This document shows positions 31,448 to 31,944 of a stretch of DNA of 40,076 bases, piece by piece (the first letter of the stretch is position 1; each line of letters opens with the position of its first letter). Made by a program: the position numbers and the translations under genes. This DNA comes from a virus (lineage: Duplodnaviria > Heunggongvirae > Uroviricota > Caudoviricetes): IMG/VR virus record IMGVR_UViG_3300022205_000001, positions 128,001-168,076 of that record; one strand, 5' to 3'. The notes beneath the pieces are model-generated. The model did no database searches and was not told the origin of the DNA. It saw only the letters and a list, made by a program, of their open reading frames with translations.

Positions 31448-31525
31448 TGGTCTGGATGGTGGGATTTGAACCCACAATTTCTCCGATCCGAACGGAGAGG
31501 AGTAGCCAGGTTCTCCTACATCCAG
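31448..31525 (-). tRNA. tRNA-Pro(CGG)
   Basis: Loop TTCGGAT, C1:G72, CCA. Confidence 0.9.
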
Positions 31526-31529
31526 GTTC

Positions 31530-31853
31530 TTAGTTTTCAATAACAGTATGCTTTTTCAGTTCAATATAAAACGATCTCTCAAGTCTAAACACTTTTCCTG
31601 CTGGTGCTGTCATTGGTTGCACAGAACATAATTCTTTAGCGATCACTGCCGGGTACGCTGTTCGCACGATATCAATAATACGATTCCGATTTTCCTGAGT
31701 ATTCGGTTTTCCAATAAACTGAGATAAACTATCTGCCAGGTATTCTGGTGCTGGTTCTGGTGCTGGTGCCTGGTCACTAAGAACTTTTACAGGGTTCAGT
31801 ATGACCGCGCCAACTGTGCCGATCAACACTTTCAGAAATGTTCGTCTATTCAT
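31530..31853 (-). CDS. Tat-signal protein carrying a gp23 (major capsid) Gol-region-like segment
   Basis: MNRRTFLK + hydrophobic core; IVRTAYPAVIAKELCSVQPMTAPAGKVF; GAGG SD. Confidence 0.7.
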   Translation of the reverse strand: MNRRTFLKVLIGTVGAVILNPVKVLSDQAPAPEPAPEYLADSLSQFIGKPNTQENRNRIIDIVRTAYPAVIAKELCSVQPMTAPAGKVFRLERSFYIELKKHTVIEN

Positions 31854-31870
31854 ACATGCCTCATAATAAT

Positions 31871-31944
31871 TGGAGCGACCACCGGATTCTGCCACCGGGA
31901 CTACGGGTTGGAAGCCCATCGTTTTGCTTCTAAACTATGGTCGC
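31871..31944 (-). tRNA. tRNA-Gly(UCC)
   Basis: Loop CTTCCAA, U73, CCA. Confidence 0.85.

Follow-up and report, generated by a model that had tools for sequence, protein, structure and literature searches.

The P0001 gene of an uncultured T4-like phage is located on the minus strand at positions 31530-31853 of the analysed DNA (the window, i.e. the final 40 kb of a virus record that is 168,076 bp long and has direct terminal repeats). It encodes a short protein, in which a twin-arginine (Tat)-type signal peptide and a variable linker precede a segment homologous to the N-terminal arm of gp23, which is T4's major capsid protein, the stretch that contains the Gol region. We propose, at a probability of roughly 40%, that the gene encodes a linear, Tat-targeted mimic of capsid protein in its unassembled state, which engages a host or phage partner.

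A gene within a tRNA array

The intact ORF comprises 107 codons and a TAA stop, and a Shine-Dalgarno motif, GAGG (31859-31862, minus strand), can be read 5 nt before the ATG of the MNRR start. The original prediction was exact in the coordinates of the ORF, and the three parts that it described, MNRRTFLK with a hydrophobic core, a QAPAPEPAPE stretch and a capsid-like stretch, are all present. A 129-codon reading from an ATG at position 31919 is wrong, because this ATG falls within the gene for tRNA-Gly(UCC) (31874-31944). The GC3 of the ORF is 31.5% versus 45.4% in long ORFs, and a Megablast search with the 4-kb surroundings against 50,697 phage records returned no match.

The P0001 gene fills the gap between two tRNA genes and lies on the same strand as the array to which they belong. 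Upstream is the tRNA-Gly(UCC) gene (31874-31944, minus strand; Rfam tRNA, 44.3 bits), in which the T loop is non-canonical and a CCA-like end is encoded, and its 3' end is located about 20 nt before the P0001 ATG. Downstream, the P0001 stop codon is followed by 4 nt and then by the 5' end of the tRNA-Pro(CGG) gene (31448-31525, minus strand), which is found by both ARAGORN and Rfam. ARAGORN identifies 26 tRNA genes and a tmRNA in the minus-strand array but leaves a 430-nt gap at the P0001 locus, where the tRNA-Gly(UCC) gene is missed. The Rfam-found gene, which aligns with the tRNA-Gly(tcc) of the related phage locus L005, raises the array to 27 tRNAs and a tmRNA. What had been described as a translation-rescue array is simply the tRNA/tmRNA array of the phage. 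Since tRNA genes on the same strand flank the P0001 gene at distances of 4 and about 20 nt, RNase P together with tRNA 3' processing would be expected to cut out a monocistronic P0001 mRNA of approximately 350 nt, a layout of the 'tRNA punctuation' kind. Between tRNA-Lys(UUU) and tRNA-Leu(UAA), the array also contains a near-consensus sigma-70-type promoter (31357-31328, minus strand; TTGACT, 18 nt, TG, TATAAT; 11/12), which suggests that transcription of the array restarts internally.

The equivalent tRNA-Gly(tcc)/tRNA-Pro(cgg) gap is occupied in another phage, with a 176-kb genome, by the gene for P0003, a protein of 116 aa that is 49% identical to P0001. A profile search of short proteins yielded seven further relatives, and a nine-way alignment was built. 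The module ORF is absent from 80 kin loci, which were found via the neighbouring phosphoesterase gene and for which positive controls were run, and in the kin loci L146 and L149 only 105 and 9 nt, respectively, separate the two adjacent tRNA genes. As the flanking tRNA genes are adjacent in these kin, the P0001 gene appears to be a sporadic accessory insertion. Judged by these comparisons and by the conservation described below, it is an intact, selected and sporadically distributed accessory gene.

Leader, linker and capsid-like module

The first 26 residues of P0001 (31776-31853, minus strand) are assigned to a twin-arginine-type signal peptide based on sequence features and on the relatives. 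Residues 2-8 of the n-region, N-R-R-T-F-L-K, agree with the Tat motif Z-R-R-x-F-L-K, and are followed by a weakly hydrophobic, Gly/Thr/Val-rich h-region of 13 residues (Kyte-Doolittle mean of 2.1 over 15 residues), the helix breaker Pro21 and the basic c-region residue K23. The leader ends with V-L-S at positions -3 to -1, or V-L-A in most relatives, and the region directly after it is acidic. A lipoprotein reading was rejected, as a Cys is absent at position +1. Profile models score the leader below their cut-offs: the Pfam TAT_signal model PF10518 gives 14.3 bits for P0001 (cut-off 22.7; E 0.041) and 18.9 bits for the ortholog P0003 (same cut-off), and TIGR01409 gives 12.3 for P0003 against a cut-off of 16.7. 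The proposed twin-arginine-type leader nevertheless fits every rule-based feature, and by these features the P0001 N-terminus carries all sequence hallmarks of a twin-arginine signal peptide. Among the 477 ORFs of the genome, P0001 is the only one with a leader of this kind.

The linker that follows (residues 27-55, QAPAPEPAPE...; 31689-31775, minus strand) is Pro/Glu/Ala-rich and poorly conserved among the relatives, and its pLDDT in an AlphaFold2 model is about 50, in agreement with the flexible linker that had been predicted. In the nine-way alignment, invariant residues are limited to the leader (N2, R3, R4, F6, K8, V9, G12, T13, P21, K23, V24 and L25) and to the module (I60, D61, V63, Y67, P68, A72, C76, S77, V78, Q79, P80, M81, T82, G86 and F89), while the linker varies in both length and sequence. 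At least nine relatives retain the leader together with the module. The C-terminal tail of P0001 (residues 93-107 and the stop codon; 31530-31577, minus strand), as delimited in the alignment of the relatives, has diverged from the basic-aromatic PWYKR..W tail that most of them possess.

Residues 56-92 (31578-31688, minus strand) form the capsid N-arm or Gol-like module, a stretch of about 37 residues that corresponds to the N-arm and first P-domain segment of gp23 and is homologous to approximately residues 93-129 of the T4 protein. The Pfam Gp23 model PF07068 matches this segment with 33.3 bits (gathering cut-off 24.4; E 4.5e-8), and the 'major head protein' profile phrog_138 with an E-value of 8.5e-8. 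Against the T4 gp23 chains in the PDB, residues 59-93 align to gp23 95-129 (E 9e-5), and 14 of 28 residues are identical to gp23 95-122. The Gol-region homology of the original prediction is therefore significant in the profile comparison with gp23 that had been put forward as a check. The match covers only positions 5-41 of the 376 profile positions, and the full HK97-like capsid domain, with its P, A and I domains, is not covered in the 107-residue protein; on this evidence P0001 is no capsid protein. Instead, the true major capsid gene of the phage is located 75 kb from the window gene (G000:C1:84662-85768) and encodes a protein of 446 aa (PF07068, E 3.6e-141), which is about 62% identical to its nearest cultured relatives, those of cyanomyoviruses. 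The segment is thus a stand-alone capsid piece, as had been suggested, in a phage that encodes a full capsid protein elsewhere.

A comparison of the module with the phage's own capsid gene, also proposed at the outset, revealed 14 identical residues out of 32 but a nucleotide identity of 46%, a third-codon identity at chance level (5/32) and a longest exact run of 8 nt. A recent duplication of, or gene conversion from, the phage's own capsid gene was rejected on the basis of the third-codon and nucleotide identities. By the same figures, the module is an old one, which has diverged from the capsid gene of the phage and is preserved in its protein sequence only.

Short module proteins in other phages

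The combination of an RR leader, a variable linker and a Gp23 N-arm module in a protein of less than about 200 aa, whose gene lies apart from the full PF07068 capsid gene of the same phage, is here used to define a class of Tat-leader capsid-module mini-proteins. P0001 falls within this class, which has about 40 members. A profile search of 1.84 billion proteins (representatives) gave 268 matches at E<=1e-3, nearly all of which are 60-250 aa long; leader and module were matched together only in proteins of up to 152 aa, and no fused long form was seen in this search. Across the wider searches, 255 short Gp23-module proteins were collected, among which 119 were excluded because they stem from real capsid genes that are truncated or split. 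A further 89 share the module only, and form 53 clusters by their non-motif parts, a count that depends on the chosen thresholds; motif-seeded searches also favour the C-S-V-Q-P-M variant. Canonical RR leaders, for instance MKRRDFLK, MDRRGFLK and MISRRKFV, are present in about 38-41 of the 255 proteins, and other hydrophobic leaders in about seven; a few relatives have leaders that are Sec-like or plain membrane anchors. The background rate of RR leaders is 1/477 and 1/1472 ORFs. Among 19 members with an RR leader, 18 are matched by Pfam Gp23 and five by TAT_signal (E<=0.05).

The module is also found in short ORFs of large phages with unrelated flanks (loci L044, L049/L050/L053, L055 and L062), and in each genome checked a single true PF07068 capsid gene is accompanied by one module gene at a distance. 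An origin of the module in bacteria or prophages found no support: one motif pattern, searched for in 185,579 species genomes of bacteria and archaea, did not occur there. A second scan of viral contigs with the RR-leader alignment returned full capsid genes only. A group of 141-aa proteins starting with 'MNSHQRR' was dropped as a carrier, since its members are the N-termini of true Rak2/BF-like jumbo-phage capsid genes.

These false carriers, the 119 broken capsid genes and the absence from P0001 of the tail motif of its relatives are what could be expected if P0001 were a functionless relic, i.e. the leftover of a duplicated capsid gene that is open by chance. This explanation is very improbable and largely refuted. 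The ORF is intact and preceded by a Shine-Dalgarno sequence, nine relatives keep the residues of leader and module while their linkers drift, third codon positions agree with those of the phage's own capsid gene no more often than by chance, and an RR leader cannot derive from a capsid gene. That homologs might turn out to be decaying fragments had been named in advance as grounds for abandoning the prediction; they behave as conserved genes.

Several members have additional features. P0145, a metagenomic protein of 196 aa, contains an RR leader followed by a second capsid segment (a FSIEKVTV..ELA-type strand and helix) and then the N-arm module, and by its sequence amounts to a permuted mini-capsid piece with a Tat leader in front. 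In L053, a 138-aa ORF (L053:5054-5470, plus strand) located about 1 kb downstream of the module gene has a weak, sub-threshold PF07068 match (17 bits; profile positions 135-190), which could reflect a second capsid piece or be due to chance; its neighbours encode a Dam-like methylase, a ClpP-like protease and a DNA ligase. A conserved basic-aromatic tail, IFKIRYV..PWYKR..W, is present in P0010-P0017, P0122-P0126, P0153, P0234, P0242 and P0262, with or without a leader, and in some module proteins with the PWYKR..W tail it is followed by a Cys/Gly-rich end (GCWGGGCCK). The PWYKR..W tail may constitute a second portable module, perhaps one that binds membranes. P0169, P0237 and P0155, which have an RR leader and are otherwise different, end with ..WG(S/D)YI(I/V)-COOH, a terminus reminiscent of the C-terminal PDZ-ligand peptides of envelope proteins.

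In cultured phages, the module is represented by phrog_12830, members of which are Aeh1p187 of Aeromonas phage Aeh1 (L064:3501-3923), QIW86832 of phage Ahp1 (L003:119-898) and gp284 of Citrobacter phage Merlin (L063:3501-3887). In this family, which occurs in Aeromonas, Citrobacter and Vibrio phages, the module is carried on an unrelated domain, and only about 35 residues of the 128-259 aa of the Merlin, Aeh1 and Ahp1 proteins are capsid-like. The genes for Aeh1p187 and the Ahp1 homolog are located inside tRNA arrays, and that for Merlin gp284 between arn and asiA in the early region. The Merlin module shares the T4-type-specific residues RRAIP and QPMN with Tevenvirinae capsid proteins. As in the case of P0001, these proteins are small and non-structural, co-exist with a full capsid gene and have the same module as their sole capsid-like part. 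In contrast to P0001, their carrier is a soluble N-terminal domain of about 75-90 residues and a leader is absent. While P0002 matches phrog_12830 over positions 1-127, P0001 does so only at positions 90-127 of the 128 profile positions (E 4.8e-5), and is for this reason not assigned to the family. Judged by the extent of the capsid-like part, the RefSeq and PHROG label 'major head protein' on phrog_12830 members is wrong, an annotation error that will propagate. The gp23-like ORF of Aeh1 is not discussed in the 2006 Aeh1 genome paper, and no description of mini-protein genes of the kind reported here was found in the Gol, decoy, capsid-mimic and phage-Tat literature. The Tat-leader capsid-module family is large, and we found no paper describing it.

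The position of the motif within these proteins bears on a regulatory explanation. In secretion monitors such as SecM, VemP and MifM, an export leader at the N-terminus and a variable linker precede a conserved C-proximal motif, which acts within the ribosome, and P0001 could in principle be a nascent-chain regulatory peptide of a similar kind, coupling the status of Tat or the membrane to the expression or processing of the downstream tRNAs. The architecture of leader, variable linker, conserved motif and short tail matches, the motif lies 14-25 residues from the stop codon in several RR-leader relatives, and the stop codon of P0001 is only 4 nt from a tRNA gene. Nevertheless, there is little to recommend this explanation: Tat acts after translation, as is well established, and hence exerts no pull on the nascent chain, most module carriers have no leader and many continue for 70-100 residues after the motif, and stalling at Gol in gp23 is without evidence.

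Possible partners and modes of action

AlphaFold2, run on the nine-sequence alignment, gave a low-confidence model (pLDDT 55.7, pTM 0.20) with a leader helix and one helix over residues 53-76, and without a compact fold. No autonomous fold is thus predicted for the mature part of P0001, which in the model is peptide-like and not a folded domain. This fits the disorder of the N-arm in T4, where residues 66-105 of gp23* lack order in the unexpanded head and acquire it only via neighbouring subunits, and where Met98 touches the portal whiskers (PMC9546572). These same contacts could point to a modulator of capsid assembly, in which the N-arm mimic docks on capsid protein, capsomers or the portal and either tunes the phage's own head assembly at the membrane or poisons that of co-infecting T4-like competitors. 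The presence of one true capsid gene and one distant module gene in every genome checked, and the RRAIP and QPMN residues shared by the Merlin module with Tevenvirinae capsid proteins, would agree with such a function. We consider it distinctly unlikely, since the predicted topology is periplasmic, with a positively charged N-terminus and an acidic stretch following the core, the patchy distribution in close kin is at odds with a core assembly role, and the gene has an early or accessory location outside the structural module.

For the preferred reading, a Tat-targeted mimic of unassembled capsid protein, the nearest precedent is the exclusion system formed by Gol, EF-Tu and Lit (of prophage e14), in which the counterpart of P0001 residues 59-93 is gp23 95-129, with about half of the residues identical. 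Conservation within T4 gp23 is highest in the Gol region, and the Gol peptide alone binds domains II/III of EF-Tu (PMC3014915). The T4 segment works as a linear EF-Tu-binding peptide ligand (PMC3014915), with which P0001 shares positional homology. Unlike T4 Gol, P0001 is encoded by a separate gene, located in a tRNA array and not within a late structural gene, and its module is placed behind an export leader. The residues of the module are kept without the rest of the capsid fold, which argues for an intermolecular partner. Their retention on 53 clusters of unrelated carriers and in phrog_12830 argues that the module may act as a portable ligand.

Another reading of this homology is a cytoplasmic ligand of EF-Tu, which would bind domains II/III and either modulate translation or block EF-Tu-dependent host toxins; the RR leader would then not direct export but tether the protein to the membrane or be a tag to which chaperones bind. 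In T4, the Gol peptide associates with EF-Tu-GDP and inhibits the EF-Tu GTPase, and Kleanthous and colleagues suggested EF-Tu binding as a property of all gp23 relatives (reviewed in PMC3014915). The identity of 14 out of 28 residues to gp23 95-122 and the location of the gene in a tRNA/tmRNA array, shared with Aeh1p187 and the Ahp1 homolog, would also be in line with this function. Three points make it unlikely. The leader looks fully export-competent, the Merlin homolog is located in the arn-asiA early region, which is no translation locus, and the amounts of EF-Tu in the cell are far too large for titration by a small accessory protein.

We suggest that the mimic would operate as follows. 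RNase P and 3' processing would free the mRNA from the tRNA precursor, and the P0001 precursor would be made in the cytoplasm, engage TatBC post-translationally and be cleaved after VLS26. The exposed module would bind whatever recognises this segment of nascent or unassembled capsid protein, for which a host sensor, EF-Tu (the only Gol partner known from experiments) or a chaperone are candidates. The leader would then take the module, possibly together with the bound partner, to or across the inner membrane, and the partner would thereby be occupied or removed to the benefit of the phage. Tat is a post-translational route for folded or complexed cargo. Because it acts after translation, the bias towards RR leaders suggests that a cytoplasmic folding or binding step matters.

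A precedent for the transport step is found in Tat hitchhiker export, in which a protein with an RR leader binds a leaderless partner in the cytoplasm and the folded complex crosses the membrane; HybO carries HybC and DmsA carries DmsB in this manner. To our knowledge, this is the only way for a Tat-tagged peptide to relocate a cytoplasmic protein. The likeness of P0001 to these systems would be one of analogy, since, unlike P0001, they consist of cellular redox-enzyme subunits, and we know of no phage example of hitchhiker export and of none aimed at the removal of the partner.

The patchy distribution, the many unrelated carriers and the early or accessory neighbourhoods would fit a role in host interaction or counter-defence. 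Capsid proteins are frequent triggers of immunity and are sensed by many defence systems (PMC13728456). In the field of phage decoy counter-defence and capsid-sensing immunity (CapRel-SJ46, CBASS, Thoeris and Lit), the mimics, which imitate a molecule recognised by a host system, are small, early and patchy, as is P0001, although no report of a capsid-fragment decoy was found in the literature on mimic or decoy counter-defence and capsid-sensing immunity. A more specific form of the proposal is counter-defence by expulsion, in which the mini-protein would capture a cytoplasmic sensor of unassembled capsid protein, of the Lit, CapRel, CBASS or Thoeris kind, and export it by the hitchhiker route or jam with it at the Tat translocase. 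The many Tat-tagged capsid pieces would then represent a library of baits. We regard this specific version as improbable.

Several considerations weigh against the mimic. If the Tat leader is cleaved, the module should end up in the periplasm, where neither EF-Tu nor Lit nor any capsid sensor known so far is located; EF-Tu and Lit, the only Gol partners known, are both active in the cytoplasm (PMC3014915). Since a 29-residue region suffices for Gol function, according to the same review (PMC3014915), one would expect Lit to be triggered, and not blocked, by a free Gol-like peptide. Also, the Pfam and NCBIfam Tat models remain below their cut-offs. The Sec-like or membrane-anchor leaders of a few relatives may indicate that the envelope location itself, and not the co-export of a partner, is the point.

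The latter possibility leads to an explanation without capsid mimicry, in which P0001 is an exported envelope effector and the module simply an extended peptide put to new use in binding a target in the periplasm or the inner membrane. Such a protein could serve superinfection exclusion, the timing of lysis or the control of envelope stress. The canonical cleavable leader with V-L-S/A at -3 to -1 is what it would require, a minority of the relatives have Sec-type or plain membrane-anchor leaders, and the amphipathic PWYKR..W tails or hydrophobic ..WGSYII ends of many others look membrane- or PDZ-directed; the Atlas feature neighbours, which are Tat-signal secreted proteins, provide a lead only. 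What this explanation leaves unaccounted for is the retention of capsid residues across more than 50 unrelated carriers, most of them leaderless, and the heavy excess of RR over Sec leaders, and no periplasmic partner for a capsid segment is known. Hence, we consider an envelope effector possible but rather doubtful.

Why the Gol stretch is so conserved has been an open question since the work on Lit. That it is encoded alone on dozens of carriers, often behind a Tat leader, argues that it is a ligand and offers a tractable handle on its partner, and the leaderless relatives in the cultured phages Aeh1, Ahp1, Merlin and Moon make experiments feasible. Metagenomic g23 surveys and capsid-based classifiers can pick up these module genes. 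If the partner is an immune sensor, the Tat-targeted mimic would be the first decoy made from a piece of capsid, and possibly a new, export-based way to disarm immunity.
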